A stretch of 64,000 bases of DNA from Phyllobates terribilis (GCF_046119375.1 NW_027362761.1:467976001-468040000), one strand, 5' to 3'; counted from the first letter of the stretch, positions 13,146-58,992 are shown. Notes: generated from the letters alone by a model not told the origin. Translations and numbers: made by a program.

Positions 13146-13195
13146 GGTGGCGGTAGAAGTGCGGGCAAGATCTCCAGGAGCCACATGTTGCAGCA

Positions 13196-29708: not shown

Positions 29709-30254
29709 TTTTTGGGGTTTTTGTTTTTGCATGTCAGAAATGTTTATTTCTAAATTTTGTGCACTGATATTGGTTTACCTGGTGAAAATAAACAAGTGAG
29801 ATGGGATTATATTTGGTTTTTATTAAGTTGCCTAATAATTTTGCACAGTAATAGTTACCTGCACAAACAGATATCCTCCTAAGTAGAGATGAGCGTTGTT
29901 CTACTCGAACTGTTCGCCAATCTCAAATTCGAGCTGTTTTGGGCGGTGTTCGAGCCGTTCGGCGAACACGAACGATTTGAGAAAAATTCGGCTGTTCGAG
30001 GTTATGTTCGATAACTGTTCGTGCACCAAAATCATAACTGGATTTTTTCTCAGTAATGATGAAAATTAATGTTAATACGCAGTTTGAGTGTACAGCGGGG
30101 TGGGGGGAGGGGCAGGGGATGGATCTCTGCAGGAATAATGAAGATCTCCATTTTTTTTTCTCTTTCCCACATTTACAGTGGGGAGGTGCAATCTGTCAGC
30201 CTATCAGCAGCGCACACACGGAGCGAAGTGCTTTTTTTCACACAAGCAAGGGCA

Positions 30255-30330
30255 TGTGTCATTGGCAGTGTATGTCACATGTCCTTGCCCTATAAGACCA
30301 AGCCATTTTCCCCATCGCCACCATTTTCTC
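30255..30330 (+). promoter_or_regulatory. Candidate transposase promoter
   Basis: Reverse CCAAT (CATTGG), TATAAG, then a YY1-like GCCACCATTTT. Same arrangement in copy B at ~55960-56030. Motif inference only. Confidence 0.35.
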
Positions 30331-30796
30331 ACTGCTGCAGCTGCGTGTTAGACGGCACCGCTGTTGCTGTGTGCGCTATACCTTGTTAATTTCAAGCCAA
30401 TTTTCGCACAAATCTACAGATAGCTTGGGAGTAGGGAATAGTTGTGATTGCAGTCCTTTTAAGGACTAGGTTACAGCATTTCCTACGACTTTTATCAGGC
30501 AGGTCTGTGCTCTTAAATAGATAGGTTGTGGGAGTAAAGACTAATTGTAATTGGAGTCCTTTTCAGGACTAGGTTACATCAGTTCCTATCAGTTTTTGCC
30601 AGGCAGGTCTGTGCCAGTGCTGTGCAAGTTTTTTTCACAGCATTTGGCTGAATCTAGCAAAGCTAATCCTTTTTGGCCTATTGCAGAGTGTGTTAGTCAC
30701 TGGAGTAGCCTATCTGTGTTGCAAGATATACCACCTGTGTATAGAATACCAATTTTTTTACTGCACCTAGTGAAGTAAAATCTTTTGGGCATAGCA

Positions 30797-33700
30797 TCAT
30801 TCTATTAGTCCATCTATACTGACCTCCATCAGGTTGCAAACTGAATATAATTTTTTTCTGCATCTACCTCTGAAAAAATATTTGGGCTTCTAGCTGTGTG
30901 TGGGACTTGTTCTATTACTCCATCTATACTGACCTCCATCAGGTTGCAAACTGAATATATTTTTTCTGCATCTACCTCTGAAAAAATATTGGGCTTCTAG
31001 CTGTGTGTGGGACTTGTTCTATTAATCCATCTATACAGACCTCCATCAGGTTGCAAACTGAATATAATTTTTTTCTGCATCTAGCTCTGAAAAAATATTT
31101 GGCCTTCTAGCAGTGTGTGGGACTTTCCCTATTAGTCCATCTATACTGACCTCCATCAGGTTGCAAACTGAATATAATTTTTTTCTGCATCTAGCTCTGA
31201 AAAAATATTTGGCCTTCTAGCAGTGTGTGGGACTTTCTCTATTAGTCCATCTATTCTGACCTCCATCAGGTTGCAAACTGAATATAATTTTTTTCTGCAT
31301 CTAGCTCTGAAAAAATATTTGGCCTTCTAGCAGTGTGTGGGACTTTCTCTATTAGTCCATCTATACTGACCTCCATCAGGTTGCAAATTAAAAATAATTT
31401 TTATCTGCATCTAGCTCTGAAAAAATATTTGGGCTTCTAGCTGTGTGTGGGACTTGTTCTATTACTCCATCTATACTGACCTCCATCAGGTTGCAAATTG
31501 AATATAATTTTTTTCTGCATCTAGCTCTGAAAAAATATTGGGCTTTTAGCTGTGTGTGGGACTTGTTGTATTAGTCCATCTATACTGACTTCCATCAGGT
31601 TGCAAACTGAATATATTTTTTTCTGCATCTACCTCTGAAAAAATATTGGGCTTCTAGCTGTGTGTGGGACTTGTTCTATTAATCCATCTATACAGACCTC
31701 CATCAGGTTGCAAACTGAATATAATTTTTTTCTGCATCTAGCTCTGAAAAAATATTTGGCCTTCTAGCAGTGTGTGGGACTTTCTCTATTAGTCCATCTA
31801 TATTGACCTCCATCAGGTTGCAAACTGAATATAATTTTTTTCTGCATCTAGCTCTGAAAAAATATTTGGCCTTCTAGCAGTGTGTGGGACTTTCTCTATT
31901 AGTCCATCTATACTGACCTCCATCAGGTTGCAAACTGAATATAATTTTTTTCTGCATCTAGCTCTGAAAAAATATTTGGCCTTCTAGCAGTGTGTGGGAC
32001 TTTCTCTATTAGTCCATCTATACTGACCTCCATCAGGTTGCAAACTGAATATAATTTTTTTCTGCATCTAGCTCTGAAAAAATATTTGGCCTTCTAGCAG
32101 TGTGTGGGACTTTATTAGTCCATCTATACTGACCTCCATCAGGTTGCAAATTAAAAATAATTTTTATCTGCATCTAGCTCTGAAAAAATATTTGGGCTTC
32201 TAGCTGTGTGTGGGACTTGTTCTATTACTCCATCTACACTGACCTCCATCAGGTTGCAAATTGAATATAATTTTTTTCTGCATCTAGCTCTGAAAAAATA
32301 TTGGGCTTCTAGCTGTGTGTGGGACTTGTTGTATTAGTCCATCTATACTGACCTCCATCAGGTTGCAAACTGAATATATTTTTTTCTGCATCTACCTCTG
32401 AAAAAATATTGGGCTTCTAGCTGTGTGTGGGACTTGTTCTATTAATCGATCTATACAGACCTCCATCAGGTTGCAAACTGAATATAATTTTTTTCTGCAT
32501 CTAGCTCTGAAAAAATATTTGGCCTTCTAGCAGTGTGTGGGACTTTCTCTATTAGTCCATCTATACTGACCTCCATCAGGTTGCAAACTGAATATAATTT
32601 TTTTCTGCATCTAGCTCTGAAAAAATATTTGGCCTTCTAGCAGTGTGTGGGACTTTCTCTATTAGTCCATCTATACTGACCTCCATCAGGTTGCAAATTA
32701 AAAATAATTTTTATCTGCATCTAGCTCTGAAAAAATATTTGGGCTTCTAGCTGTGTGTGGGACTTGTTCTATTACTCCATCTATACTGACCTCCATCAGG
32801 TTGCAAATTGAATATAATTTTTTTCTGCATCTAGCTCTGAAAAAATATTTGGCCTTCTAGCATTGTGTGGGACTTTCTCTATTAGTCCATCTATACTGAC
32901 CTCCATCAGGTTGCAAACTGAATATAATTTTTTTCTGCATCTAGCTCTGAAAAAATATTTGGGCTTCTAGCTGTGTGTGGGACTTGTTGTATTAGTCCAT
33001 CTATACTGACCTCCATCAGGTTGCAAACTGAATATAATTTTTTTCTGCATCTAGCTCTGAAAAAATATTTGGCCTTCTAGCAGTGTGTGGGACTTTCTCT
33101 ATTAGTCCATCTATACTGACCTCCATCAGGTTGCAAACTGAATATAATTTTTTTCTGCATCTAGCTCTGAAAAAATATTTGGCCTTCTAGCAGTGTGTGG
33201 GACTTTCTCTATTAGTCCATCTATACTGACCTCCATCAGGTTGCAAACTGAATATAATTTTTTTCTGCATCTAGCTCTGAAAAAATATTTGGCCTTCTAG
33301 CAGTGTGTGGGACTTTCTCTATTAGTCCATCTATACTGACCTCCATCAGGTTGCAAACTGAATATAATTTTTTTCTGCATCTAGCTCTGAAAAAATATTT
33401 GGCCTTCTAGCAGTGTGTGGGACTTTATTAGTCCATCTATACTGACCTCCATCAGGTTGCAAATTAAAAATAATTTTTATCTGCATCTAGCTCTGAAAAA
33501 ATATTTGGGCTTCTAGCTGTGTGTGGGACTTGTTCTATTACTCCATCTATACTGACCTCCATCAGGTTGCAAATTGAATATAATTTTTTTCTGCATCTAG
33601 CTCTGAAAAAATATTGGGCTTCTAGCTGTGTGTGGGACTTGTTGTATTAGTCCATCTATACTGACCTCCATCAGGTTGCAAACTGAATATATTTTTTTCT

Positions 33701-35020
33701 GCATCTAGCTCTGAAAAAATATTGGGCTTCTAGCTGTGTGTGGGACTTGTTCTATTAATCGATCTATACAGACCTCCATCAGGTTGCAAACTGAATATAA
33801 TTTTTTTCTGCATCTAGCTCTGAAAAAATATTTGGCCTTCTAGCAGTGTGTGGGACTTTCTCTATTAGTCCATCTATACTGACCTCCATCAGGTTGCAAA
33901 TTAAAAATAATTTTTATCTGCATCTAGCTCTGAAAAAATATTTGGGCTTCTAGCTGTGTGTGGGACTTGTTCTATTACTCCATCTATACTGACCTCCATC
34001 AGGTTGCAAATTGAATATAATTTTTTTCTGCATCTAGCTCTGAAAAAATATTGGGCTTCTAGCTGTGTGTGGGACTTGTTCTATTAGTCCATCTATACTG
34101 ACCTCCATCAGGTTGCAAACTGAATATAATTTTTTTCTGCATCTAGCTCTGAAAAAATATTTGGCCGTCTAGCAGTGTGTGGGACTTTCTCTATTAGTCC
34201 ATCTATACTGACCTCCATCAGGTTGCAAATTAAAAATAATTTTTATCTGCATCTAGCTCTGAAAAAATATTTGGGCTTCTAGCTGTGTGTGGGACTTGTT
34301 CTATTACTCCATCTATACTGACCTCCATCAGGTTGCAAATTGAATAGAATTTTTTTCTGCATCTAGCTCTGAAAAAATATTGGGCTTCTAGCTGTGTGTG
34401 GGACTTGTTGTATTAGTCCATCTATACTGACCTCCATCAGGTTGCAAACTGAATATAATTTTTTTCTGCATCTAGCTCTGAAAAAATATTTGGCCTTCTA
34501 GCAGTGTGTGGGACTTTCTCTATTAGTCCATCTATACTGACCTCCATCAGGTTGCAAATTAAAAATAATTTTTATCTGCATCTACCTCTGAAAAATTATT
34601 TGGGCTTCTAGCTGTTTGTCTGACTTGTTCTATTACTCCATCTATACTGACCTCCATCAGGTTGCAAATTGAATATAATTTTTTTCTGCATCTAGCTCTG
34701 AAAAAATATTGGGCTTCTAGCTGTGTGTGGGACTTGTTGTATTAGTCCATCTATACTGACCTCCATCAGGTTGCAAACTGAATATATTTTTTTCTGCATC
34801 TACCTCTGAAAAAATATTGGGCTTCTAGCTGTGTGTGGGACTTTCTCTATTAGTCCATCTATACTGACCTCCATCAGGTTGCAAACTGAATATTTTTTTT
34901 TCTGCATCTACCTCTGAAAAAGTATTTGGGCTTCTAGCTGTGTGTGGGACTTGTTCTATTAGTCCATCTATACTGACCTCCATCAGGTTGCAAATTGAAT
35001 ATAATTTTTTTCTGCATCTA
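30797..35020. repeat. 110-bp tandem satellite, about 39 monomers, inside hAT copy A
   Basis: CTCCATCAGG recurs at 110-bp spacing (e.g. 32461, 32571, 32681 ... 33341); several monomer variants. Confidence 0.97.
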
Positions 35021-35136
35021 ACCCAGCCAATAGTTTTGGCCTAATACCACAGTTTGGCCACTCAGCTCTGCTCGCTTCCCATCCATTGTTTTTTTGTGCA
35101 AACAACTCCAGAGTTGTGAATTAGTTAACCACCAAA

Positions 35137-38100
35137 ATGAGTGGAAAAAGGCCTGCTGCTGGTGGAAAGGGGAATAGGCGTGTTGGGAAGGGGAAAAAAG
35201 GTTGTGTCCGTGGAGTAGGTGTTAAAGCAACAGTAACATCTGCAGAAGAAAGACCATCTTCCAGCCAAACTAAAATGTCTACTTCTTTTAGCGGACAATG
35301 TGATAAGATCCCTTTCTTACGGCCACGCCAATCGCTACAAATTCCAGATGAGGCACAAAAACAGCAGGTGCTTCAACGGATATCAAGTGCTCCTTTAAGT
35401 GGGCTCTCCTCCACATCAACTTCAACATCACAAATACTCCAGTCCTCAAAGGTGTCACCCCAATCGCACTTGCTTCCTCACAGCTCCCAAATCTCCAGCT
35501 GCCCGTCTGAGTATGAGGTAGAACAGATGGTTGAGTCTGCAGAGCTGTTTACTCATACTATAGCCTGGGAATCAGAGGTCGACTCCAGCGCTTCTGTGAA
35601 TCCAGACGAGGAAATGATCTGCACTGATGCCCAGAATCTTTATGAGTCGGATCCAGGACCAGACGCAGAAGGTTCTGACCATAATGTAGACCCTCATTCC
35701 CAAACTGTAACTCCTGTTGGTGGAGACAATGAGGAAGACGATGATGATACTCAAATACCTGATTGGAGCGACAACTTTAGTTTTTTGTCAGGGCAGGAAC
35801 AGGTTGGCTCTGAGGACGACGGGTGTGATAACGCACAGGGTGATGATGATGAGGTTGGAGATCCCACTTACTGTCAACCCACAGTCAGCCAAGAGATGAG
35901 GTCAGCAGAGGAGGTGGAGGAAGATGCTAGTGACGACGAGGTCAGGTTGCGCCTTCCTGGACAGAGACGTAGTACTGGAAGCACGTCAACAACTGCATCC
36001 TCAAACACAACTCTGCCTCTCACCACAAGTCGTGGTGGCTCTTCAGGTCGCATGGGTGCTAAGCCTTGCATAGCCTGGGCATTTTTTCAGATCGATAAAG
36101 ATGACCCAACTCGTGTTATCTGTAACATTTGTCAGCAAAAGCTAAGTAGAGGCCAAAAAATACATAGTTTGAGTACTTCATGCATGAACCGGCACATGGA
36201 CATGAAGCATAAGTTGCAGTGGGAAGCTCAGTGTGCTACAATGCGGCCTAGCTGGCCGGGCCAACCACCGTCTGCCATATCTTGTGCATCCGCGGCCTCT
36301 TCATCCTCTGTGACTGGGGGACAGCAGTCACACCTGTTTTGGGGCGCAGACCTGCCACCTCTTTACCCGCAACAGCCAGCGTGATTGGCAGGTCATCATT
36401 TTCTTTGGAGGTGGTAACACCACCTGGTGTTGAGCGCTGTCTGACATCGATAGAACCATCTTTGGATCAAGGCAACCTAACATGTCCGCCTGCATCTTCC
36501 TCACAGACCGGCAGTTTGCCGGGGACACCCTTATCAACCCCGTCTAAGCACAATAGCCAGCCCTCGGTCCCTCAGATGTGGACAAGTAAAAGACCATTTC
36601 CTCCTAGCCATGAGAAAGCTAAGAGGTTGAATTTCACCATCTGCAAGCTCTTGGCTACAGAAATGCTGCCTTTCCGCCTGGTGGACACAGAGGATTTTCG
36701 AGACCTTATGTCCGTCGCAGTGCCCCAGTACCAGATGCCCAGTCGGCACTACTTCTCAAAGAAAGGTGTGCCTGCGCTCCACCAGCATGTCGCACCCAAC
36801 ATCACCGCTTCTTTGAGAAACTCTGTGTGTGACAGGGTGCATTTCACCACAGACACTTGGACGAGTAGGGATGGACAGGGGCGTTACATGTCGCTGACTG
36901 GGCACTGGGTAACTATGGTGACAGCAGGACAAGGGGCTGCTGTCCAAGTCTTGCCGTCCCCACGAGTTGTGCGTCAATCCTCTTTATCTCAAAGTTCCTC
37001 CACTGCTTCTGCCTCCTCAACCTCCTCTCGGTCTTCCACCTGCACCCAAAGCCTGTCTGGTCATGCCACAAGCTTTCTAACTGCGCAGAAGGGATCCTGC
37101 ACACCTCCTTACTATGCTGGCAGTAGGGCTCAACGTCATCAGGCGGTTTTTACTTTGAAATGTCTGGGAAATGTGAGTCACACAGCTGAGGAGTTGTGGT
37201 GAGCTCTGGAGAACCAATTTCATGAATGGTTGTCTCCACTGGACCTGAAACCAGGGAAGGCCGTGTGCGACAATGCTGCAAACCTGGGTGCGGCCCTTCG
37301 CCGGGGCAATGTCACACACATGCCTTGTATGGCTCACTATCCCAGACTAGATGGCCTTCTGCAGAGTGCACGGTCGCTGTGTGCTCACTTCCGCCGTTCG
37401 CATCCCGCAGCTCAGCGACTTACATCTCTACAGAAGTCGTTGGGCCTGCCACTTCACCGGCTAAAATGCAATGTGCCTACCCGGTGGAATTTAACTCTGC
37501 ACATGTTGCAGCGACTGTGGCAGCACCGACAAGCCCTGGTGCAATACGTTCTGACGTATAGCCTGGGCCAACGAGATCCAGACGTGGGGCAAATCACGCT
37601 GGAGGAGTGGTCTCAGATCAGGGACCTATGCACCCTTCTGCACAGTTTTGAAATGGCGACGAAGATGTTTAGTGCTGACGATGCCATTATCAGCATGACT
37701 ATTCCGGTGATTTACATGCTGGAGCACATGTTAAACAGAATTCGGAGTCAGGTGGTGGCACAAGAGGAGGTGGAGGAAGTAGAGGAGGAGTTGTATGCGG
37801 AAGGGCTAACATCTGCAAGATCCAGACGGTCGGCAGCACCAAGGCGGCAGGCATGTGAGGTTGGGGGAGATGGTTTTACCAGGGCGCATGGTAGCAGCCA
37901 AACTAGTGAGGAAGGTGCAGGAGCCCAGGAAGAAGTGGAGGACGAACTGATGGAAGACTCATCAGATGAGGGAGACCTTGATCACATTTCTGTTGTGCGA
38001 GGTTGGGGGGAGAGGACAGAGGAAGGAAGCATGATTGTTACCTCGCCACCAACACAACACGGACTTGGTGCTCCTGGATGCGCAACACACATGAGTGCCT

Positions 38101-38798
38101 TCTTGCTGCACTACCTGCAACATGACCCTCGAATTGGGAGAATTAGAAATAATCCTGACTACTATGTTGCCACACTGTTAGATCCCCGGTACAAAAGTAA
38201 ATTTGCAGAAATTATTCCTGCCATAGAAAGGGATGCACGCATGCAGGAGTATCAGCAGAGACTGTTGCAGAATCTTACATGTGCTTTTCCACAAAACACC
38301 AGTGGTGCACGTAGTGAATCTCACAGTTCCAACTTGCCAACCGTGGGACCGTCAAGTGTTCAGCACTCAAACCATAACAGAACCACAGTATCTGCTGGTA
38401 ACATCAATTTTGCGCAATCATTTCACCACTTTTTTAGCCCATCCTTTGCAAGGCCACAGGAGACAAGAAGTCTGACACATAGTCAACACCTAGAGACGAT
38501 GGTACAGGAGTATCTCCAAGTAAACATTGAAGCCATGACTGTGTCACTGGACCCTTGCTCTTTTTGGGCTTCCAATCTGGATAAATGGCCGGAGCTAGCC
38601 ACTTACGCCATGGAGATCTTGTCATGCCCCGCAGACAGCGTTCTGTCTGAACGTGTGTTCAACACTGCTGGTGGTGTGCTGACAGATAAGCGCACGCGGC
38701 TCTCCACTGATAATGTAGACAGACTCACGTTCATAAAGATGAACAAATCATGGATCCGAAACGACTTTTCTACCCCTGTGTCATCCTGGGGAGAGTAA
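35137..38798 (+). pseudogene. hAT transposase, copy A (disrupted)
   Basis: Collinear with the copy B ORF, but with G5 instead of G6 at ~36316 (frameshift), TGA at 37200-37202 and a 36-bp deletion after CMAH. Confidence 0.95.
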
Positions 38799-38829
38799 AA
38801 GATGGATGATTGGTTAAAATCACCCTACC

Positions 38830-39118
38830 AACCGTTTTAAGCATTCAAATTACTAATCATGTTTATCTGTATCTTGGCTGGAAAATAATTTGGGCTTTGT
38901 AGCAGTGTGCAGCACTGATTCTATTAGGCCATCTATAATAAGCTCCACCAGATTTAAAATTACTAATCATGTTTATCTGTATCTTGGCTGGAAAATAATT
39001 TGGGCTTTGTAGCAGTGTGCAGCACTGATCCTATTAGGCCATCTATACTAAGCTCCACCAGATTTAAAATTAATAATAATTTTTAGCTGCATCTAGCCCG
39101 GAAAATAATTTTGGGGCT
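38830..39118. repeat. Diverged 110-bp monomers 3' of the transposase
   Basis: About 2.6 units related to the 5' satellite (TAGCAGTGTG, CTATTAGGCCATCTATA, GCATCTAGC). Copy B (48500-48680) has one unit fewer. Confidence 0.8.
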
Positions 39119-39231
39119 CCGAGATGCGCAAGACACATAAGTGCCTTCTTGCTGCACTACCTGCAACATGACCCTCATATTGTCAGAATTCGAAGTAATC
39201 ATGACTACTGGGTTGCCACACTCTTAGATCC

Positions 39232-40607
39232 GCCAAACTTTTCGATCAACCTTTTCATTTTAATAAAGACCAAAAAAATGGTCATTTTTGAAATTATAAG
39301 CATTAGCAGGTTATTAGAAACTGAAGTCAAACAGTTTTCAACTCAAAACTTTATTCTAGGTGATGTAACATTTTCACATAGGACCCCTTGTTCGAAAGGA
39401 GCTTCTGAACTCTCTCGTCCATTGAATTTGTCAGGTTTTGGATGGTTTTTGCTTCAATTGTTTTGCATGAGGACAGAATACCCTCCCAGAGCTGTTGCTT
39501 AGATGTGAACTGCCTCCCGCCATCATAGACACTCCTTTTGATGATACTCCAGAGGTTCTGAATGGGGTAGAGGTCAGGGGAGCATGGGGGTCACACCATA
39601 AGTTTGTCCCCTTTTATGCCGATATCAGCCAGAGATGCAGATGTTTTATGTGCAGCATGAGATGGTGCATTATCATGCAAAAAATTGATCTTGCTGTGAA
39701 TTACACGGTTCTTCTTCTTGAACCATGGCAGGAAGTGCTGTTTGAGAAAATCCACATACTTTATGGAGTTCATCTTTAGCGCCTTCAGGGATCCTAAAGG
39801 GGCCGACAATCTCTCTCCCCATGATTCCAGCCCAAAACATTACTCCACCTCCTCCTTGTTGGCGCTGTAGCCGTGTTTGCGTGGGGTGTCCATCAACCAG
39901 CCATCCTCCACTCCATCCATCTGGACTATCGAGCGCTGCACGGCACTCATCCGTGAACAAAACAGTTTTGAAATCAGTCTTCATGTAATGTTTGGCCCAC
40001 TGGAGCCGTTTCTGCTTGTGTGAAGTGGATAGAGGAGGTCGACAGGATGGCGTATGCACAGCTGTAAACCTCTGAAGGACCCTGCATCTTGTTGTTCGGG
40101 GGATGTTGGAGGCACCAGCAGCTTCAAAAACTTGTCTGCTGCTATGACAAGGCTTTTTTGCCGCTGCTCTTTTAACCTGACGTAATTGCTTGTAGGAAAG
40201 AGTCCTCAATTTGCCCTTATCAGCACGCACACGTGTGTACTGTGAATCAGCTACATACTTCTTGATTGCCAAGACACTTCATCCTGATCATCGCACAATG
40301 TTGATTGTAGTCATGCCTTGACCTAAACACTCCACAATTTGTTGCTTCTCAGCAGCCGACACATCCTTTTTCTTTCCCATTTTGGCAGAAAATGTAGGCT
40401 GCTTAATAATGTGAGACAGCCTTCTTAAGTAGTCGTGCCTTTCATTGGACACACCTGCCAAACTAATTAGCACAGGTGTCTGCAATTGCTTACAGTGATA
40501 TAAAGAGCCCTGACACACATCACCATCAATGAGTTTAACTGACAAACAAACAAATTCTTCCCTTATCACTCCTAAACACTTTTTGCATAATAATTTGGAA
40601 CACAGTG
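39232..40607 (-). mobile_element. Cargo Tc1-like DD37E element in copy A, one TIR lost
   Basis: TIR CACTGTGTTCCAAATTATTATGCAA at a TA (40608-40609); MGKKKDVS, FTDECR, HDNAPSH with D-37-(E/Q) spacing; other end truncated. Confidence 0.88.
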
Positions 40608-40689
40608 TACATGTGCTTTTCCACAAAACACCAGTGGTTTACGTAGTGAATCTTACAGTTCTAACTTGCAACCGTGGTCTGTATGGAGT

Positions 40690-41250
40690 TGTTCAATAAA
40701 GGGCCCAAAATTAAGATAACATAGATGGGAGAGGTCTCTATGAATAGGAATTCCTAAGTATTTGATACCCTGTGAGGGCCAGGCAAAGGGAAAGTTGGAC
40801 TGGATGGAATCCTATATGGATTTGGGGAGGGAGACATCGAGGGCCTCAGACTTCGCTGCATTGATTTTAAAATTTGACCATGTAACAAAGTGATCTATTT
40901 CAGCCATAACAGCATGGATGGATATATGTGATTGAGTGATATATACTAGGACATCATCAGCAAATAGAGAGCACTTGTACTCTGTGCCTCCCACCTCAAT
41001 CCACCTAATATTGGGGTTATGGCGAATTGATGAGAGCAGGTGCTCCGTCACTAGGATGTATAAGAGAGGGCACAGAGAACATCGCTGCCTTGTCCCATTG
41101 GTGATTGTGAAAGGTGATGAAAATGTTCTGACGCGCCCCCTGGGCCTTGGGACACCCAGAGCCGGACCCTTTTTGGTGGATGCTGGTGGTTGTAGTCTCC
41201 GTGGCGGCGACCCGGTTCCGTGGCTCAGGGCGGTCAAACCAGTGGCGGAA
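40690..41250 (-). pseudogene. Cargo L1/Tx1-type reverse transcriptase fragment in copy A
   Basis: FSSPFTITNGTRQRCSLCPLLY...SLFADDVLVY...FKINAAKSE; the B copy reads GTRQGCPLSPLLY. Confidence 0.88.
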
Positions 41251-41257
41251 CTATTTA

Positions 41258-46366: not shown

Positions 46367-46374
46367 TAAATAGT

Positions 46375-46930
46375 TCCGCCACTGGTTTGACCGCCCTGAG
46401 CCACGGAACCGGATCGCCGCCACGAAGACTACAACCACCAGCATCCACCAAAAAGGGTCCGGCTCCGGGTGTCCCAAGGCCCAGGGGGTGCGTCAGAACA
46501 TTTTCATCACCTTTCACAATCACCAATGGGACAAGGCAGGGATGTCCTCTGTCCCCTCTCTTATACATCCTAGTGACGGAGCACCTGCTCTCATCAATTC
46601 GCCATAACCCCAATATTAGGTGGATTGAGGTGGGAGGCACCGAGTACAAGTGCTCTCTATTTGCTGATGATGTCCTAGTATATATCACTCAATCACATAT
46701 ATCCATCCCTGCTGTTATGGCTGAAATAGATCACTTTGTTACATGGTAAAATTTTAAAATCAATGCAGCGAAGTCTGAGGCCCTCGATGTCTCCCTCCCT
46801 AAATCCATATAGGATTCCATCCAGTCCAACTTTCTCTTTGCCTGGCCCTCACAGGGTATCAAATACTTAGGAATTCCTATTCATAGAGACCTCTCCCATC
46901 TATGTTATCTTAATTTTGGGCCCTTTATTG
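46375..46930 (+). pseudogene. Cargo L1/Tx1-type RT fragment in copy B
   Basis: ORF 46387-46749: GTRQGCPLSPLLY...LFADDVLVY. Confidence 0.88.
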
Positions 46931-47017
46931 AACAATTCCATACAGACCACGGTTGGCAAGTTAGAACTGTAAGATTCACTACGTGAACCACTGGTGTTTT
47001 GTGGAAAAGCACATGTA

Positions 47018-48393
47018 CACCGCGTTCCAAATTATTATGCAAAAAGTGTTTAGGAGTGATAAGGGAAGAATTTGTTTGTTTGTCAGTTAAACTCATTGAT
47101 GGTGATGTGTGTCAGGGCTCTTTATATCACTGTAAGCAATTGCAGACACCTGTGCTAATTAGTTTGGCAGGTGTGTCCAATGAAAGGCAAGACTACTTAA
47201 GAAGGCTCTCTCACATTATTAAGCAGCCTACATTTTCTGCCAAAATGGGAAAGAAAAAGGATGTGTCGGCTGCTGAGAAGCAACAAATTGTGGAGTGTTT
47301 AGGTCAAGGCATGACTACAATCAACATTGTGCGATGATCAGGATGAAGTGTCTTGGCAATCAAGAAGTATGTAGCTGATTCACAGTACACACGTGTGCGT
47401 GCTGATAAGGGCAAATTGAGGACTCTTTCCTACAGGCAATTACGTCAGGTTGAAACAGCAGCGGCAAAAAAGCCTTGTCATAGCAGCAGACAAGTTTTTG
47501 AAGCTGCTTGTGCCTCCAACGTCCCCCGAACAACAAGATGCAGGGTCCTTCAGAGGTTTGCAGCTGTGCATATGCCATCCTGTCGACCTCCTCTATCCAC
47601 TTCACACAAGCAGAAACGGCTCCAGTGGGCCAAACATTACATGAAGACTGATTTCAAAACTGTTTTGTTCACGGATGAGTGCCGTGCAGCGCTCGATGGT
47701 CCAGATGAATGGAGTGGAGGATGGCTGGTTGATGGACACCCCACGCAAACACGGCTACAGCGCCAACAAGGAGGAGGTGGAGTAATGTTTTGGGCTGGAA
47801 TCATGGGGAGAGAGATTGTCGGCCCCTTTAGGATCCCTGAAGGCGCTAAAGATGAACTCCATAATGTATGTGGATTTTCTCAAACAGCACTTCCTGCCAT
47901 GGTTCAAGAAGAAGAACCGTGTATTTCACAGCAAGATCATTTTTCTGCATGATAATGCACCATCTCATGCTGCACATAAAACATCTGCATCTCTGGCTGA
48001 TATGGGCATAAAAGGGGACAAACTTATGGTGTGACCCCCATGCTCCCCTGACCTCTACCCCATTCAGAACCTTTGGAGCATCATTAAAAGGAGTGTCTAT
48101 GATGGCGGGAGGCAGTTCACATCTAAGCAACAGCTCTGGGAGGGTATTCTGTCCTCATGCAAAACAATTGAAGCAGAAACCATCCAAAACCTGACAAATT
48201 CAATGGACGAGAGAGTTCAGAAGCTCCTTTCGAACAAGGGGTCCTATGTGAAAATGTAACATCACCTAGAATAAAGTTTTGAGTTGAAAACTGTTTGATT
48301 TCAGTTTCTAACAACCTGCTAATGCTTATAATTTCAAAAATGACCATTTTTTTGGTCTTTATTAAAATTAAAAGGTTGATCGAAAAGTTTGGG
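47018..48393 (+). mobile_element. Cargo DD37E Tc1 element in copy B
   Basis: Homolog of 39232-40607 with the same junctions and the same internal stop after NIVR. Confidence 0.88.
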
Positions 48394-48716
48394 GGATCTA
48401 AGAGTGTGGCAACCCAGTAGTCATGATTACTTCGAATTCTGACAATATGAGGGTCATGCTGCAGGTAGTGCAGCAAGAAGGCACTTATGTGTCTTGCGCA
48501 TCTCGGAGCCCCAAAATTATTTTCCGGGCTAGATGCAGCTAAAAATTATTTTTAATTTTAAATCTGGTGAAGCTTATTATAGATGGCCTAATAGGATCAG
48601 TGCTGCACACTGCTGCAAAGCCCAAATTATTTTCCAGTCAAGATACAGATAAACATGATTAGTAATTTGAAAGCTTAAAATGGTTGGTAGGGTGATTTTA
48701 ACCAATCATCAAGCTT

Positions 48717-51700
48717 TTACTCTCCCCAGGATGACACAGGGGTAGAAAAGTCGTTTTGGATCCATGATTTGTTCATCTTTATGAACGTGAGTCTGTCTAC
48801 ATTATCAGTGGAGAGCCGCGTGCGCTTATCTGTCAGCACACCACCAGCAGCGCTGAACACACGTTCAGACAGAACGCTGGCTGCGGGGCATGACAAGATC
48901 TCCAAGGCGTAAGTGGCTAGCTCCGGCCATTTATCCAGATTGGAAGCCCAAAAAGAGCAAGGGTCCAGTGACACAGTCGTGGCTTCAATGTTTACTTGGA
49001 GATACTCCTGTACCATCGTCTCTAGGCGTTGACTATGTGTCAGACTTCTTGTCTCCTGTGGCCTTGCAAAGGATGGGCTAAAAAAGTGGTGAAATGATTC
49101 CGCAAAATTGATGTTACCAGCAGATACTGTGGTTCTGTTACGGTTTGAGTGCTGAACACTTGACGGTCCCACGGTTGGCAAGTTGGAACTGTGAGATTCA
49201 CTACGTGCACCACTGGTATTTTGTGGAAAAGCACATGTAAGATTCTGCAACAGTCTCTGCTGATACTCCTGCATGCGTGCATCCCTTTCTATGGCAGGAA
49301 TAATTTCTGCAAATTTACTTTTGTACCGGGGATCTAACAGTGTGGCAACCCAGTAGTCAGGATTATTTCTAATTCTCACAATTCGAGGGTCATGTTGCAG
49401 GTAGTGCAGCAAGAAGGCACTCATGTGTGTTGCGCATCCAGGAGCACCAAGTCCCTGTTGTGTTGGTGGCGAGGTAACAATCATGCTTCCTTCCTCTGTC
49501 CTCTCCCCCCAACCTCGCACAACAGAAATGTGATCAAGGTCTCCCTCATCTGATGAGTCTTCCATCAGTTCGTCCTCCACTTCTTCCTGGGCTCCTGCAC
49601 CTTCCTCACTAGTTTGGCTGCTACCATGCGCCCTGGTAAAATCATCTCCCCCACCCTCACATGCCTGCCGCCTAAACATCTTCGTCGCCATTTCAAAACT
49701 GTGCAGAAGGGTGCATAGGTCCCTGATCTGAGACCACTCCTCCAGCGTGATTTGCCCCACCTCTGAATCTCGTTGGCCCAGGCTATACGTCAGAACGTAT
49801 TGCACCAGGGCTTGTCGGTGCTGCCACAGTCGCTGCAACATGTGCAGAGTTGAATTCCACCGGGTAGGCACATCGCATTTTAGCCGGTGAAGTGGCAGGC
49901 CCAACGACTTCTGTAGAGATGTAAGTCGCTGAGCTGCGGGATGCGAACGGCGGAAGTGAGCACACAGCGACCGTGCCCTCTGCAGAAGGCCATCTAGTCT
50001 GGGATAGTGGGCTAAAAATTGCTGGACAACCAGGTTCAACACGTGAGCCATACAAGGCACGTGTGTGACATTGCCCCGGCGAAGGGCCGCACCCAGGTTT
50101 GCAGCATTGTCGCACACGGCCTTCCCTGGTTTCAGGTCCAGTGGAGACAACCATTCATGAAATTGGTTCTCCAGAGCTGACCACAACTCCTCAGCTGTGT
50201 GACTCACATTTCCCAGACATTTCAATGTAAAAACCGCCTGATGACGTTGAGCCCTACTGCCAGCATAGTAAGGAGGTGTGCAGGATCCCTTCTGCGCAGT
50301 TAGAAAGCTTGTGGCATGACCAGACAGGCTTTGGGTGCAGGTGGAAGACCGAGAGGAGGTTGAGGAGGCAGAAGCAGTGGAGGAACTTTGACATAAAGAG
50401 GATTGACGCACAACTCGTGGGGACGGCAAGACTTGGACAGCAGCCCCTTGTCCTGCTGTCACCATAGTTACCCAGTGCCCAGTCAGCGACATGTAACGCC
50501 CCTGTCCATGCCTACTCGTCCAAGTGTCTGTGGTGAAATGCACCCTGTCACACACAGAGTTTCTCAAAGAAGCGGTGATGTTGTGTGCGACATGCTGGTG
50601 GAGCGCAGGCACACCTTTCTTTGAGAAGTAGTGCCGACTGGGCATCTGGTACTGGGGCACTGCGACGGACATAAGGTCTCGAAAATCCTCTGTGTCCACC
50701 AGGCGGAAAGGCAGCATTTCTGTAGCCAAGAGCTTGCAGATGGTGAAATTCAACCTCTTAGCTTTCTCATGGCTAGGAGGAAATGGTCTTTTACTTGTCC
50801 ACATCTGAGGGACCGAGGGCTGGCTATTGTGCTTAGACGGGGTTGATAAGGGTGTCCCCGGCAAACTGCCGGTCTGTGAGGAAGATGCAGGCGGACATGT
50901 TAGGTTGCCTTGATCCAAAGGTGGTGCAATCGATGTCGGACAGCGCTCAAGACCAGCTGGTGTTACCACCTCCAAAGAAAATGATGACCTGCCAATCACG
51001 CTGGCTGTTGCGGGTAAAGAGGTGGCAGGTCTGCGCCCCAAAACAGGTGTGACTGCTGTCCCCCCAGTCACAGAGGATGAAGAGGCCGCGGATGCACAAG
51101 ATATGGCAGACGGTGGTTGGCCCGGCCGGCTAGGCCGCATTGTAGCACACTGAGCTTCCCACTGCAACTTATGCTTCATGTCCATGTGCCGGTTCATGCA
51201 TGAAGTACTCAAACTATGTATTTTTTGGCCTCTACTTAGCTTTTGCTGACAAATGTTACAGATAACACGAGTTGGGTCATCTTTATCGATCTGAAAAAAT
51301 GCCCAGGCTATGCAAGGCTTAGCACCCATGCGACTTGAAGAGCCACCACGACTTGTGGTGAGAGGCAGAGTTGTGTTTGAGGATGCAGTTGTTGACGTGC
51401 TTCCAGTACTACGTCTCTGTCCAGGAAGGCGCAACCTGACCTCGTCGTCACTAGCATCTTCCTCCACCTCCTCTGCTGACCTCATCTCTTGGCTGACTGT
51501 GGGTTGACAGTAAGTGGGATCTCCGACCTCATCATCATCACCCTGTGCGTTATCACACCCGTCGTCCTCAGAGCCAACCTGTTCCTGCCCTGACAAAAAA
51601 CTAAAGTTGTCGCTCCAATCAGGTATTTGAGTCTTATCATCGTCTTCCTCATTGTCTCCACCAACAGGAGTTACAGTTTGGGAATGAGGGTCTACATTAT

Positions 51701-52223
51701 GGTCAGAACCTTCTGCGTCTGGTCCTGGATCCGACTCATAAAGATTCTGGGCATCAGTGCAGATCATTTCCTCGTCTGGATTCACAGAAGCGCTGGAGTC
51801 GACCTCTGATTCCCAGGCTATAGTATGAGTAAACAGCTCTGCAGACTCAACCATCTGTTCTACCTCATACTCAGACAGGCAGCTGGAGATTTGGGAGCTG
51901 TGAGGAAGCAAGTGCGATTTGGGTGACACCTTTGAGGACTGGAGTATTTGTGATGTTGAAGTTGATGTGGAGGAGAGCCCACTTAAAGGAGCACTTGATA
52001 TCCGTTGAAGCACCTGCTGTTTTTGTGCCTCATCTGGAATTTGAAGCGATTGGCGTGGCCGTAAGAAAGGGATCTTATCACATTGTCCGCTAAGAGAAGT
52101 AGACATTTTAGTTTGGCTGGAAGATGGTCTTTCTTCTGCACCTACCCCACGGACACAACCTTTTTTCCCCTTCCCAACACGCCTATTCCCCTTTCCACCA
52201 GCAGCAGGCCTTTTTCCACTCAT
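48717..52223 (-). CDS. hAT (Ac-type) transposase with BED finger, 1168-aa open frame
   Basis: BED AWAFF...CNIC...HMDMKH; catalytic TTDTW, VCDNAA, CMAH, PTRWNS, SVLSERVFS; C-terminal dimerization domain. Has 7-aa and 57-aa in-frame deletions relative to copy A. Confidence 0.92.
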   Translation of the reverse strand: MSGKRPAAGGKGNRRVGKGKKGCVRGVGAEERPSSSQTKMSTSLSGQCDKIPFLRPRQSLQIPDEAQKQQVLQRISSAPLSGLSSTSTSTSQILQSSKVSPKSHLLPHSSQISSCLSEYEVEQMVESAELFTHTIAWESEVDSSASVNPDEEMICTDAQNLYESDPGPDAEGSDHNVDPHSQTVTPVGGDNEEDDDKTQIPDWSDNFSFLSGQEQVGSEDDGCDNAQGDDDEVGDPTYCQPTVSQEMRSAEEVEEDASDDEVRLRLPGQRRSTGSTSTTASSNTTLPLTTSRGGSSSRMGAKPCIAWAFFQIDKDDPTRVICNICQQKLSRGQKIHSLSTSCMNRHMDMKHKLQWEAQCATMRPSRPGQPPSAISCASAASSSSVTGGTAVTPVLGRRPATSLPATASVIGRSSFSLEVVTPAGLERCPTSIAPPLDQGNLTCPPASSSQTGSLPGTPLSTPSKHNSQPSVPQMWTSKRPFPPSHEKAKRLNFTICKLLATEMLPFRLVDTEDFRDLMSVAVPQYQMPSRHYFSKKGVPALHQHVAHNITASLRNSVCDRVHFTTDTWTSRHGQGRYMSLTGHWVTMVTAGQGAAVQVLPSPRVVRQSSLCQSSSTASASSTSSRSSTCTQSLSGHATSFLTAQKGSCTPPYYAGSRAQRHQAVFTLKCLGNVSHTAEELWSALENQFHEWLSPLDLKPGKAVCDNAANLGAALRRGNVTHVPCMAHVLNLVVQQFLAHYPRLDGLLQRARSLCAHFRRSHPAAQRLTSLQKSLGLPLHRLKCDVPTRWNSTLHMLQRLWQHRQALVQYVLTYSLGQRDSEVGQITLEEWSQIRDLCTLLHSFEMATKMFRRQACEGGGDDFTRAHGSSQTSEEGAGAQEEVEDELMEDSSDEGDLDHISVVRGWGERTEEGSMIVTSPPTQQGLGAPGCATHMSAFLLHYLQHDPRIVRIRNNPDYWVATLLDPRYKSKFAEIIPAIERDARMQEYQQRLLQNLTCAFPQNTSGARSESHSSNLPTVGPSSVQHSNRNRTTVSAGNINFAESFHHFFSPSFARPQETRSLTHSQRLETMVQEYLQVNIEATTVSLDPCSFWASNLDKWPELATYALEILSCPAASVLSERVFSAAGGVLTDKRTRLSTDNVDRLTFIKMNKSWIQNDFSTPVSSWGE

Positions 52224-52334
52224 TTTGGTGGTTAACTAATTCACAACTCTGGAGTTGTTTGCACAAAAAAACAATGGATGGTAACCGAGCAGAGCTGAGT
52301 GGCCAAACTGTGGTATTAGGCCAAAACTATTGGC

Positions 52335-55300
52335 TGGGTTAGATGCAGAAAAAAAATATTTTTAATTTGCAACCTGATGGAGGTCAGTATAGATGGACTA
52401 ATAGACCAAGTCCCACACACCGCTAGAAGCCCAAATATTTTTTCAGAGCTAGATGCAGAAATTTTTTTTATTCAATTTGCAACCTGATGGAGGTCAGTAT
52501 AGATGGACTAATAGACCAAGTCCCACACACTGCTAGAAGCCCAAATATTTTTTCAGAGCTAGATGCAGAAAAAAATTATTTTTAATTTGCAACCTGATGG
52601 AGGTCAGTATAGATGGACTAATAGACCAAGTCCCACACACTGCTAGAAGCCCAAATATTTTTTCAGAGCTAGATGCAGAAAAAAATTATTTTTAATTTGC
52701 AACCTGATGGAGGTCAGTATAGATGGACTAATAGACCAAGTCCCACACACCGCTAGAAGCCCAAATATTTTTTCAGAGCTAGATGCAGAAAATTTTTTTA
52801 TTCAATTTGCAACCTGATGGAGGTCAGTATAGATGGACTAATAGACCAAGTCCCACACACTGCTAGAAGCCCAAATATTTTTTCAGAGCTAGATGCAGAA
52901 AAAAATTATTTTTAATTTGCAACCTGATGGAGGTCAGTATAGATGGACTAATAGACCAAGTCCCACACACTGCTAGAAGCCCAAATATTTTTTCAGAGCT
53001 AGATGCAGAAAAAAATTATTTTTAATTTGCAACCTGATGGAGGTCAGTATAGATGGACTAATAGACCAAGTCCCACACACTGCTAGAAGCCCAAATATTT
53101 TTTCAGAGCTAGATGCAGAAAAAAAATATTTTTAATTTGCAACCTGATGGAGGTCAGTATAGATGGACTAATAGACCAAGTCCCACACACCGCTAGAAGC
53201 CCAAATATTTTTTCAGAGCTAGATGCAGAAAATTTTTTTATTCAATTTGCAACCTGATGGAGGTCAGTATAGATGGACTAATAGACCAAGTCCCACACAC
53301 TGCTAGAAGCCCAAATATTTTTTCAGAGCTAGATGCAGAAAAAAATTATTTTTAATTTGCAACCTGATGGAGGTCAGTATAGATGGACTAATAGACCAAG
53401 TCCCACACACTGCTAGAAGCCTAAATATTTTTATAGAGCTAGATGCAGAAAAAAATTATTTTTAATTTGCAACCTGATGGAGGTCAGTATAGATGGACTA
53501 ATAGAACAAGTCCCACACGCTGCTAGAAGCCCAAATATTTTTTCAGAGATAAAAGAAGAAAAAAATTATTTTTAATTTGCAACCTGATGGAGGTCAGTAT
53601 AGATGGACTAATAGACCAAGTCCCACACACTGCTAGAAGCCGAAATATTTTTTCAGAGCTAGATGCAGAAAAAAATTATTTTTAATTTGCAACCTGATGG
53701 AGGTCAGTATAGATGGACTAATAGACCAAGTCCCACACACCGCTAGAAGCCCAAATATTTTTTCAGAGCTAGATGCAGAAAAAAATTATATTCAATTTGC
53801 AACCTGCTGGAGGTCAGTATAGAAGGACTAATAGAACAAGTCCCACACACTGCTAGAAGCCCAAATATTTTTTCAGAGCTAAATGAAGAAAAAAATTATT
53901 TTTAATTTGCAACCTGATGGAGGTCAGTATAGATGGACTAATAGACCAAGTCCCACACACTGCTAGAAGCCCAAATATTTTTTCAGAGCTAGATGCAGAA
54001 AAAAAATATTTTTAATTTGCAACCTGATGGAGGTCAGTATAGATGGACTAATAGACCAAGTCCCACACACCGCTAGAAGCCCAAATATTTTTTCAGAGCT
54101 AGATGCAGAAAATTTTTTTATTCAATTTGCAACCTGATGGAGGTCAGTATAGATGGATTAATAGACCAAGTCCCACACACTGCTAGAAGCCCAAATATTT
54201 TTTCATAGCTAGATGCAGAAAAAAATTATTTTCAATTTGCAACCTGATGGAGGTCAGTATAGATGGACTAATAGACCAAGTCCCACACACTGCTAGAAGC
54301 CCAAATATTTTTTCAGAGCTAGATGCAGAAAAAAAATATTTTTAATTTGCAACCTGATGGAGGTCAGTATAGATGGACTAATAGAACAAGTCCCACACGC
54401 TGCTAGAAGCCCAAATATTTTTTCAGAGCTAAATGAAGAAAAAAATTATTTTTAATTTGCAACCTGATGGAGGTCAGTATAGATGGACTAATAGACCAAG
54501 TCCCACACACTGCTAGAAGCCCAAATATTTTTTCAGAGCTAGATGCAGAAAAAAATTATTTTTAATTTGCAACCTGATGGAGGTCAGTATAGATGGACTA
54601 ATAGACCAAGTCCCACACACCGCTAGAAGCCCAAATATTTTTTCAGAGCTAGATGCAGAAAATTTTTTTATTCAATTTGCAACCTGATGGAGGTCAGTAT
54701 AGATGGACTAATAGACCAAGTCCCACACACTGCTAGAAGCCCAAATATTTTTTCAGAGCTAGATGCAGAAAAAAATTATTTTTAATTTGCAACCTGATGG
54801 AGGTCAGTATAGATGGACTAATAGACCAAGTCCCACACACTGCTAGAAGCCCAAATATTTTTTCAGAGCTAGATGCAGAAAAAAATTATTTTTAATTTGC
54901 AACCTGATGGAGGTCAGTATAGATGGACTAATAGAACAAGTCCCACACACTGCTAGAAGCCCAAATATTTTTTCAGAGATAAATGAAGAAAAAAATTATT
55001 TTTAATTTGCAACCTGATGGAGGTCAGTATAGATGGACTAATAGACCAAGTCCCACACACTGCTAGAAGCCCAAATATTTTTTCAGAGCTAGATGCAGAA
55101 AAAAATTATTTTTAATTTGCAACCTGATGGAGGTCAGTATAGATGGACTAATAGACCAAGTCCCACACACCGCTAGAAGCCCAAATATTTTTTCAGAGCT
55201 AGATGCAGAAAAAAATTATATTCAATTTGCAACCTGCTGGAGGTCAGTATAGAAGGACTAATAGAACAAGTCCCACACACTGCTAGAAGCCCAAATATTT

Positions 55301-55487
55301 TTTCAGAGCTAAATGAAGAAAAAAATTATTTTTAATTTGCAACCTGATGGAGGTCAGTATAGATGGACTAATAGACCAAGTCCCACACACTGCTAGAAGC
55401 CCAAATATTTTTTCAGAGCTAGATGCAGAAAAAAATTATATTCAATTTGCAACCTGATGGAGGTCAGTATAGATGGACTAATAGAAT
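52335..55487. repeat. 110-bp tandem satellite, about 29 monomers, inside hAT copy B
   Basis: CCTGATGGAGG at strict 110-bp spacing; reverse complement of the copy A monomer family with the same array boundaries. Confidence 0.97.
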
Positions 55488-57351
55488 GATGCTATGCCCA
55501 AAAGATTTTACTTCACTAGGTGCAGTAAAAAAATTGGTATTCTATACACAGGTGGTATATCTTGCAACACAGATAGGCTACTCCACTGACTAACACACTC
55601 TGCAATAGGCCAAAAAGGATTAGCTTTGCTAGATTCAGCCAAATGCTGTGAAAAAAACTTGCACAGCACTGGCACAGACCTGCCTGGCAAAAACTGATAG
55701 GAACTGATGTAACCTAGTCCTGAAAAGGACTCCAATTACAATTAGTCTTTACTCCCACAATCTATCTATTTAAGAGCACAGACCTGCCTGATAAAAGTCG
55801 TAGGAAATGCTGTAACCTAGTCCTTAAAAGGACTGCAATCACAACTATTCCCTACTCCCAAGCTATCTGTATATTTGTGCGAAAATTGGCTGGAAATTAA
55901 CAAGGTATAGCTCACACAGCAACAGCGGTGCCATCTAACACGCAGCTGCAGCAGTGAGAAAATGGTGGCGACGGGGAAAATGGCTTGGTCTTATAGGGCA
56001 AGGACATGTGACATACACTGCCAATCACACATGCCCTTGCTTGTGTGAAAAAAAGCACTTCGCTCCGTGTGTGCGCTGCTGATAGGCTGACAGATTGCAC
56101 CTCCCCACTGCAAATGCGGGAAAGAGAAAAAAAAATGGAGATCTTCATTGTTCCTGCAGAGATCCATCCCCTGCCCCTCCCCCCGCCCCGCTGTACACTC
56201 AAACTGCGTATTAACATTAATTTTCATCATTACTGAGAAAAAATCCAGTTATGATTTTGGTGCACGAACAGTTATCGAACATAACCTCGAACAGCCGAAT
56301 TTTTCTCAAATTGTTCGTGTTCGCCGATCGGCTCGAACACCGCCCAAAACAGCTTGAATTTGAGATTGGCGAACAGTTCGAGTAGAACACCGCTCATCTC
56401 TACTCTTAAGCTTCCAAGCTTCTCCCTTTTTCCTCCAAATGTAACGATGGTCATTATGGCCAAAAAAATTAATTTTAGTTTCATCAGACCACAGGACATG
56501 TCTCCAAAAATTAGAGTCTTTGTTCCTGTGTACATTTGCAAAAATTAATCTTGCTTTTTTATGTTTCTTTTGGAGTAATGGCTTCTTCCTGGAAGAGTGA
56601 CCTTTCAGCCCATGTTGATATTGTAATCGTTTCAATGTGGATATTAACACAATCTTACCAGCTTCCGCCATCATCTTCACAAGGTCTTTTGCTTTTGTCC
56701 TTGGGTTGATATACACATGTCGGACCAAAGCACGTTCAATCCTGGGACACAGAACCCGTCTCCTTCCTGAGCGGTATGATGGCTGGACATACCCGTCCTG
56801 TTTGCACTTGCGTATAATTGTTTTTACAGATGGACGAGGCACCTTAAGGTATCTTGAAATTGTACCCAAGGATGAGCCAGACTTGTGAAAGTCCATAATT
56901 CTTTTCCTGATATCTTGGGTGATTTCTTTAGTTTCCCATGATGCTACACAAAGAGGTAGTGGGTTTCAGGTGTGCATTAAAATACATCCACAGATTTGAC
57001 TTTAATTTACTCAGATGTTGCCAAAACACCTATCAGAAGCATCCAAACACATGACATCATCAAATGGGCAGTCCAGAATTTTTTAAAGGCATAGTAATAT
57101 TAGTGTATGTACGCTTTTGACTTTGAAATAAGTAATAAAAATACCTTAAAACATTCTCTCGCTCATTGGTCTGGCATTTGGCAAATAATAAAAATTACGG
57201 TAATCCTAATTGACCTAAATTGGAAAAGTTTATTCTGATTTCATGTCATATATTGAGAAAAACGTGTATATGTGTCTTTTTATATAGTGTATGCAAACTT
57301 CTGGTTTAAACTTTATGTATGTATATATATACATATATATATATATATATA

Positions 57352-58970: not shown

Positions 58971-58992
58971 TATATATACATATATATATATA

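Follow-up and report, generated by a model that had tools for sequence, protein, structure and literature searches.

Two separate insertions of a 12–13.5-kb composite hAT transposon carrying nested dead elements in the poison frog Phyllobates terribilis

We analysed a stretch of 64,000 nucleotides from the genome of Phyllobates terribilis (GCF_046119375.1 NW_027362761.1:467976001-468040000), which is referred to as the window and to which all coordinates apply. The window contains two copies, A and B, of an oversized composite DNA transposon of 12–13.5 kb. Judged from their sequence, A and B are hAT elements by their target-site duplications (TSDs), terminal inverted repeats (TIRs), subterminal repeats and transposase domains. 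In addition to a transposase gene, both contain a tandem array with a 110-bp unit, a block of other transposable elements (TEs) and a fragment resembling 18S ribosomal RNA (rRNA). The order of these internal parts is identical in the two copies, which are 857 bp apart and are each inserted in a different Tc1 element. Comparison of the two supports the conclusion that the composite, including its passengers, moved as one unit at least once. The copies, their target sites and their hosts are as follows.

29884..43385, plus strand: copy A, composite hAT of 13,502 bp, with imperfect TIRs of 11 bp (9/11) and, at either end, subterminal repeats of the CGAAC type
44243..56402, minus strand: copy B, composite hAT of 12,160 bp, colinear with A
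29876..29883, plus strand: left 8-bp TSD of A, CTCCTAAG
43386..43393, plus strand: right 8-bp TSD of A, CTCCTAAG
44235..44242, plus strand: 8-bp TSD of B, CTCTTAAG
56403..56410, plus strand: second 8-bp TSD of B, CTCTTAAG
28474..43545, plus strand: Tc1 host of A, about 1.56 kb without A, which lies near the 3' end of the host
43935..56965, minus strand: host of B, a different Tc1, whose transposase frame crosses the B site; outer limits provisional

The homology between A and B begins and ends exactly at the termini, and the flanks of the two copies are unrelated. The 8-mer CTCCTAAG was found in the window at 29876 and 43386 only, and CTCTTAAG at 44235 and 56403 only; the probability of a given 8-mer at a fixed end by chance is about 1-2e-5. 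The left and right TIRs are identical at 9 of the 11 bases in B as well as in A, and both ends of each copy match the hAT TIR pattern (T/C)AGNGNNG (PMC6027215). The two terminal 200-bp stretches of A hold 6 and 7 instances of the hexamer CGAACA, compared with 0.3 per 400 bp window-wide, and these hexamers are putative subterminal repeats of the hAT type. The 8-bp TSD is exact in A, B and a smaller relative (copy C, described below), and the empty sites retain one copy of it. All three complete cases fit nTnnnnAn, albeit in a sample of this small size; the same target preference has been described for Hermes (PMC10368747). When A is removed, its host is left as a Tc1 of about 1.56 kb in which both TIRs are present, one at 28474 and the other at about 43543. 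Removal of B together with one TSD copy gives a continuous transposase frame of the host Tc1, with a Pfam match on the host open reading frame (ORF). Because each copy has its own exact TSD and splits a different Tc1 host, the composite must have been moved by hAT transposition at least once. An earlier, sequence-only reading had described A and B as independent insertions with their own exact 8-bp TSDs, the same internal order and 11-bp hAT-type TIRs. The TSDs, the order (with B on the minus strand) and the independence of the insertions were borne out by these results, and the TIRs are present but imperfect.

The transposase genes of the two copies are in different states.

35137..38798, plus strand: A transposase gene, no longer intact: a 1-bp change shifts the frame near 36315, a stop interrupts it at 37200 and 36 bp are deleted near 37334
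48717..52223, minus strand: B transposase frame (P0001), open over 1172 aa from stop to stop, with a BED domain, the catalytic D/D/E, a C-terminal dimerisation domain and an in-frame 57-codon deletion

The B transposase gave Pfam matches to zf-BED and Dimer_Tnp_hAT and matched Hermes with an E-value of about 4e-19, the regions around D709 and E1124 being aligned. D570, the presumed first catalytic residue, is kept in all 20 homologues, and D709 and E1124 are each kept in 19. The 57-codon segment deleted in B is present in 19 of the 20 homologues. No transposase lesion is common to A and B, and their ancestor therefore probably had an intact gene of about 1230 aa. It was probably autonomous, while neither copy looks autonomous today, the activity of B being judged from sequence. 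Among the 25 matches of the first protein search, the named ones were anuran 'ZBED4/6-like' proteins, save one distant plant match; P0001 itself was absent from the protein collection searched. The nearest transposase pieces, 70–89% identical, are those of the dendrobatoid frogs Ranitomeya and Anomaloglossus, and they grouped with copy B at 100/100 support in a tree without reference transposases for Ac, Buster or Tip. By this affinity the window would most likely be assigned to a poison frog or one of its near relatives. The Ac family includes ZBED4/6 (PMC3606216). The bacterial and archaeal genomes scanned contained no relative of the element.

The remaining internal parts are listed below.

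29884..30799, plus strand: 5' non-coding region of A, a putative promoter region in the sequence-only reading; it comprises the left TIR and subterminal repeats, a duplication of 103 bp and, adjoining the array, a single degenerate unit of the 110-bp type (z score, 8.3)
30800..35020, plus strand: main 110-bp tandem array of A, 38.6 units, four main A-specific monomer types
52340..55485, minus strand: main 110-bp tandem array of B, 28.6 units, four main B-specific monomer types
38847..39111, plus strand: second short 110-bp-type array of A, 2.4 units, with about 75% identity to the main array; B has one unit less
39111..42510, no strand assigned: passenger block of A, 3.4 kb (3400 bp), with the same native 34-bp motif at both borders (88% identical)
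39111..39231, plus strand: transposase partial duplicate 1 of A, corresponding to codons about 926-969 of P0001, with 87-90% identity to the gene of the element itself
39232..40609, minus strand: nested Tc1 of A, at a TA of the transposase duplicate, with one TIR only and a dead ORF, its lesions common to A and B
40610..40677, plus strand: transposase partial duplicate 2 of A, corresponding to codons about 1000-1019, with 93-96% identity to the gene of the element itself
40678..41128, minus strand: L1 reverse-transcriptase fragment of A, downstream piece
41129..42341, no strand assigned: TG...CA segment of A, 1213 bp, with a 4-bp TSD (GTTC), within the L1 fragment and read as a solo long terminal repeat (LTR)
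42342..42500, minus strand: L1 reverse-transcriptase fragment of A, upstream piece, in frame with the downstream piece across the LTR insertion
42614..42889, minus strand: 18S rRNA-like fragment of A, with a confident core at about 42759-42889 that matches model positions of about 490-630, and a weak extension reaching about 42614
44723..44870, plus strand: 18S-like fragment of B
45285..46495, no strand assigned: solo-LTR-like segment within the L1 fragment of B
47016..48393, plus strand: nested dead Tc1 of B

Past the stop codon of the transposase, the element thus consists of the short 110-bp-type array, a transposase duplicate, Tc1, the other duplicate, L1 split by the LTR, the native motif, the 18S-like piece and the right end. 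The block enters the transposase duplicate at a microhomology. The nested Tc1 has four lesions (two stops in a scrambled stretch, one frameshift and one further stop), all of which are common to A and B, as is one frameshift in the L1. The L1 reverse-transcriptase fragment amounts to about 610 bp in total, and the ORFs of the 1213-bp segment that splits it gave no Pfam match. The Pfam search of the internal ORFs scanned detected Tc1 and reverse-transcriptase remnants only and no intact passenger gene, and the several intact ORFs beyond the transposase that mark giant TEs with accessory genes are not found in A or B. The foreign cargo is one inert 3.4-kb block of dead pieces. Without the block and the main array, A measures 5881 bp; without the array only, A and B measure 9281 and 9013 bp, respectively. 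We estimate the native backbone at about 5.9 kb, a length explained by the transposase ORF, which alone occupies 3.66 kb. No fused gene model joining the hAT transposase to passengers was seen among the related proteins run against the window. As a separate observation, the nested Tc1 used as a query matched a protein of the fish Metynnis hypsauchen at 89% identity across 81% of the query, and horizontal spread of this Tc1 family may underlie the match.

The match to 18S rRNA comprises a core of about 130 bp, which a weak extension lengthens to about 280 bp. This piece is the sole host-derived cargo, the remainder being TE-derived, and the parent loci fall outside the window. It may be a recent capture or a long-established component of this frog hAT clade. 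No 18S piece was found in the other hAT relics at 16900-26000, a result that is uninformative, one of them (D) being without its right end and the other (C) internally deleted. The sequence-only reading had listed satellite DNA, other TEs and ribosomal DNA as cargo. The TEs and the 18S-like piece are indeed aboard, the latter with confidence only in its core, whereas the satellite is derived from the element itself, as described below. Of the TEs that it named, the Tc1 is dead and has one TIR, and the 'LTR-like segment' is the TG...CA segment inside the L1; the two partial transposase duplicates and the second short array in the 3' region had been missed.

Sequences homologous to the 110-bp unit recur at three further sites within the element: immediately before the array (z = 8), after the stop codon (z = 56) and beside the 18S piece (z = 11). 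The satellite is therefore native and not captured, being an expansion of a motif of the element itself, and the main array would have grown from the 5' copy of that motif. The relatives C, D and E contain no homologue of the motif (z under 2). Derivation of the satellite from 18S was also considered and rejected, as no Rfam match was obtained over 30500-31200 at E-values up to 5 and the z score against the 18S core was 1.6. Clustering of 38 monomers from A and 28 from B gave copy-specific groups, with no mixed cluster at three cut-offs, end monomers included. Among the recurrent monomer variants, 17 occur in A only, 12 in B only and 4 in both, and the A–B monomer distance (6.7%) exceeds the within-array distances (5.0% and 4.3%). 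The lack of mixed clusters and the larger A–B distance rule out colinear inherited arrays, and most of the present units arose by later turnover, separately in each copy. The diversity within the arrays (4-5%) is greater than the A–B background, which indicates that the ancestor probably had several units. Because most of the present units arose after the jump, the array may have differed in length at that time; the simplest reading is a long ancestral array, since both A and B carry a long one.

Outside the array, A and B differ at 155 of 8973 aligned sites (1.7%) and by 12 indels. The passengers (65/3188, 2.04%) are as diverged as the native non-coding sequence (47/2315, 2.03%), and the values for the individual parts are 1.96% for Tc1, 2.10% for L1 and LTR together, 2.4% for the 5' end and 2.0% for the 3' end. 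The equal divergence of passengers and native non-coding sequence indicates that the block was already present when A and B split. The termini are no less diverged than the block and there is no long identical tract (the longest is 336 bp, P = 0.34), which argues against recent conversion of the block from one copy into the other. The passengers being diverged no less than the ends, the earlier proposal that the family moves as one unit agrees with these data for at least one transposition. At least 9 kb was moved in one jump (about 9.3 kb is certain), and the length was probably 12–13 kb.

These observations can be accommodated by ordinary hAT behaviour. The transposase would bind the TIRs and subterminal repeats and cut out everything between them, and the excised DNA would reinsert at nTnnnnAn sites with an 8-bp duplication, the contents between the ends being passive. 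The native unit, about 5.9 kb in length, would have encoded a long transposase (about 1230 aa) of low complexity and contained the 110-bp motif several times. It would have been enlarged in two ways. A single 3.4-kb block was probably copied once from an already decayed relative, previously hit by Tc1, L1 and LTR insertions, most likely by template switching during gap repair; gap repair is also the origin of Ds-like internal rearrangements. The 5' native motif would have grown into a tandem array with continuing turnover. The composite, with its transposase gene still intact, would then have transposed at least once to give A and B. The proximity of A and B suggests local hopping in a small lineage. 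The number of pairs within 1 kb expected by chance is 0.2 for 1000 copies in an assumed 5-Gb genome; chance co-location would need thousands of copies, which favours a local hop. In maize, 50–60% of Ac reinsertions are within 5 cM (PMC3016246).

We lean, at slightly better than even chances, towards the explanation that a swollen hAT of ordinary mechanism, from a poison-frog-type genome, kept jumping and that a small local lineage gave rise to A and B. Several results weigh against it and are left unexplained by a simple pair of twins made in one step. A central tract (30484-38296 and its counterpart in B) is diverged by 1.1%, compared with 2.1% elsewhere (permutation P = 0.036), possibly through conversion or through recombination with a third copy. 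The transposase has 6 synonymous changes between A and B against 18 expected, for which we have no explanation beyond this tract. Derived changes are skewed towards A, at 22:8 in the transposase (p = 0.016), 8:4 in Tc1 and 3:0 in one L1 motif. The transposase count merges two sets: distant homologues as the outgroup gave 14:1 (p = 0.001), for conserved sites only, and the closer dendrobatoid outgroups gave 15:8 (p = 0.21). No monomer cluster is shared between the arrays, even at the array ends. Together, the skew, the central tract and the separate arrays give a hint of recombination or of additional copies. No donor of the 3.4-kb block was found, and stepwise insertion in place, into a lineage kept alive by selection, is thus an alternative origin of the block.

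Some of the same results would be expected if A and B came from different sublineages of a dispersed, long-lived family, whose standard autonomous form of 12–13.5 kb spreads the array, the dead-TE block and the 18S piece genome-wide. The unequal branch lengths, mosaic divergence and fully separate arrays fit such a family, as do the long arrays in both copies and the transposase relatives in Ranitomeya and Anomaloglossus. In addition, the transposase of the ancestor was probably intact while its passengers had at least four lesions; at the passenger rate, about nine lesions would have been expected in the 3.66 kb of the transposase gene (a hand estimate). Changes in columns conserved in at least half of the 20 homologues were 0 of 8 in B and 10 of 22 in A (Fisher p = 0.03); at two stricter thresholds the test was not significant (p = 0.14 and 0.16), and the ratio of nonsynonymous to synonymous substitution rates (dN/dS) between the A and B transposases, 1.9, is not different from 1. 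Since the dead passengers are skewed to A like the transposase, a strong claim of selection on the B transposase was dropped, and such selection is only weakly suggested. Only two copies were seen, 857 bp apart, which is insufficient to establish a dispersed family, as local hopping could yield such a pair. None of the related frog proteins run against the window matched the Tc1, L1 or LTR passengers, although proteins are a weak probe here, and copy C, which bears the ends without the cargo, is internally deleted and hence uninformative. We regard a dispersed family of this kind as doubtful, though worth keeping in view. It is improbable that two cargo-free siblings were inserted separately and that the block, formed in one of them, was transferred to the other by gene conversion. 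Some conversion may have occurred, given that A and B lie side by side in inverted orientation and that their divergence is patchy; however, a converted block should be younger than the ends, whereas Tc1, L1 and LTR are diverged to the same degree as the ends, the low-divergence tract spans the transposase and not the cargo, and long identical tracts are missing. Since the region is rich in repeats and the tandem array lies in a large inverted repeat, an assembly artefact or an inverted segmental duplication might also be suspected. This is very unlikely because the TSDs are separate and different, the TIRs mark the precise limits of the homology, and A and B interrupt two distinct Tc1 hosts whose empty sites are clean; moreover, A and B are told apart by the differences outside the array given above and by copy-specific array variants.

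Mobile elements are nested in one another in the region of A and B, and at least five of them are hATs of the A/B type. The third of them is a short relative.

20742..22489, minus strand: copy C, 1.75 kb, internally deleted, with ends 79-90% identical and its own TSD, CTCCTGAG

Copy C contains no transposase, array, 18S piece or passenger block, and cleanly splits the transposase of another hAT relic; most of it (20950-22212) is occupied by a palindromic insert resembling a miniature inverted-repeat transposable element. Relic D (18431-25603, minus strand) has main transposase pieces 34-49% identical to those of B, measures at least 5.4 kb without the nested C, lacks its right end, and contains short internal tandem repeats and no 110-bp array. 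Relic E (1-8504, minus strand, left end at 8504) is rearranged, with an 800-bp tandem duplication of transposase sequence (979-2591), and its 5' subterminal region resembles the inverted 3' region of D. An intact chromodomain Ty3/Gypsy element nested in E (2944-7915) is very young, with LTRs 99.8% identical, one gag-pol frame of 1375 aa and a 5-bp TSD. An older Gypsy-type element at 12623-16910, with LTRs 91% identical and a broken pol, is located within a GT/AT-rich microsatellite. A further Tc1 with inverted repeats of about 310 bp is located in a TA microsatellite (57351-58972), and a degenerate 89-bp tandem array of 5 copies is found at 63119-63562.

A natural vertebrate hAT that jumps with at least 9 kb, and probably 12–13 kb, between its ends shows that nested dead elements can be multiplied passively. 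In annotation based on fragments, such multiplication makes Tc1, L1 and LTR families appear older and higher in copy number than they are. Tentatively, and with less confidence than we have in a local lineage, one may envisage a dispersed poison-frog hAT subfamily with a working autonomous form of 12–13.5 kb that would have taken a multi-kb satellite, the block of dead TEs and the 18S piece along in many successive transpositions. If the composite is such a family, it would be a concrete means by which poison-frog genomes grow and satellites are seeded: arrays and rDNA-like sequence would be scattered over a multi-gigabase genome, and annotation of the RepeatModeler type would see unrelated fragments only. 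In the D. tinctorius assembly, 39% is unclassified repeat and hATs account for 3.9% (PMC11152451).

Compared with known systems, A and B resemble Hermes, Ac and Tol2 of the Ac family in their 8-bp nTnnnnAn TSDs, short imperfect TIRs, subterminal repeats and a transposase with BED, DDE and dimerisation domains. Hermes is about 3 kb in length and encodes 612 aa (PMC10368747), whereas the frog element has a transposase of about 1230 aa, a native length of about 5.9 kb and a composite length of 12–13.5 kb. The anuran 'ZBED4/6-like' hAT transposases (Ranitomeya, Anomaloglossus, Phyllobates, Dendrobates, Engystomops, Hyperolius, Hyla and Xenopus) belong to the same protein family; these relatives are known as predicted proteins only. 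The sequence-only reading had put the family at about three times the usual hAT size. It is indeed oversized, but the baseline of 3-5 kb used there is shorter than the native backbone; typical hATs are about 5 kb (PMC6710886). The length of 12–13.5 kb exceeds any natural hAT family that we found in print, namely the 7.1-kb Gulliver consensus (7144 bp, given as the longest plant hAT consensus in PMC6027215) and a fungal family of 9.5-9.9 kb. The latter, the histone-H3 hAT of Pseudocercospora fijiensis, has 133 full-length copies, 99 of which have intact TIRs and 8-bp TSDs (PMC6710886). It is likewise oversized and cargo-carrying, but is proven to be dispersed, is somewhat shorter and carries a host-gene retrocopy, while A and B are two copies carrying TE debris, the array and the 18S piece. 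ToxhAT/ToxTA, a 14-kb cargo-carrying TIR element, has been reclassified as probably Tc1/mariner with a TA TSD (PMC12506042), which rules it out as a precedent for hAT size. Polinton and Teratorn are giant TEs with accessory genes of their own (PMC6431247), and the passages of that giant-transposon review considered here do not contain the term hAT.

Among frog elements, FEDoR of Rana temporaria and miDNA4-Xt are DNA transposons with internal tandem repeats that have been proposed as satellite vehicles (PMC12054243). Both are non-coding, with lengths of about 3.5 kb and 0.3-0.6 kb, respectively, in contrast to the 3-4-kb array in a coding hAT. The closest parallel in behaviour is Pack-hAT-N8_XT of Xenopus tropicalis, a multicopy Pack-TIR for which capture by template switching, through gap filling or FoSTeST, has been described (PMC8277862). 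Like this frog hAT, whose captured DNA was transposed again with distinct TSDs, A and B have captured DNA between TIRs in more than one copy with distinct TSDs. The cargo of Pack-hAT-N8_XT is 291 bp of a host untranslated region (the median for Pack-TIRs is 224 bp), as opposed to a 3.4-kb TE-derived block together with a transposase gene. We found no description of the present element in the literature covered, which left subscription journals and Repbase Reports mostly outside its scope, so that absence from print is not established. In its size, and in joining a coding backbone to a native array of several kb and to a nested block of dead TEs, the element goes beyond the examples found. The suggestion that it is an undescribed mobile system is overstated, however, since cargo-carrying hATs, including the 9.5-9.9-kb family, are already in print. 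No new mechanism is involved, as the large capacity of hAT transposases and the capture of cargo are both known already; Tol2 moves about 70 kb with 8-bp TSDs (PMC2768751). A and B work like a multicopy Pack-hAT, with an ordinary mechanism and inert cargo. The composite thus shows a behaviour that is already known, on an unusually large scale, and does not represent a novel class of mobile element.

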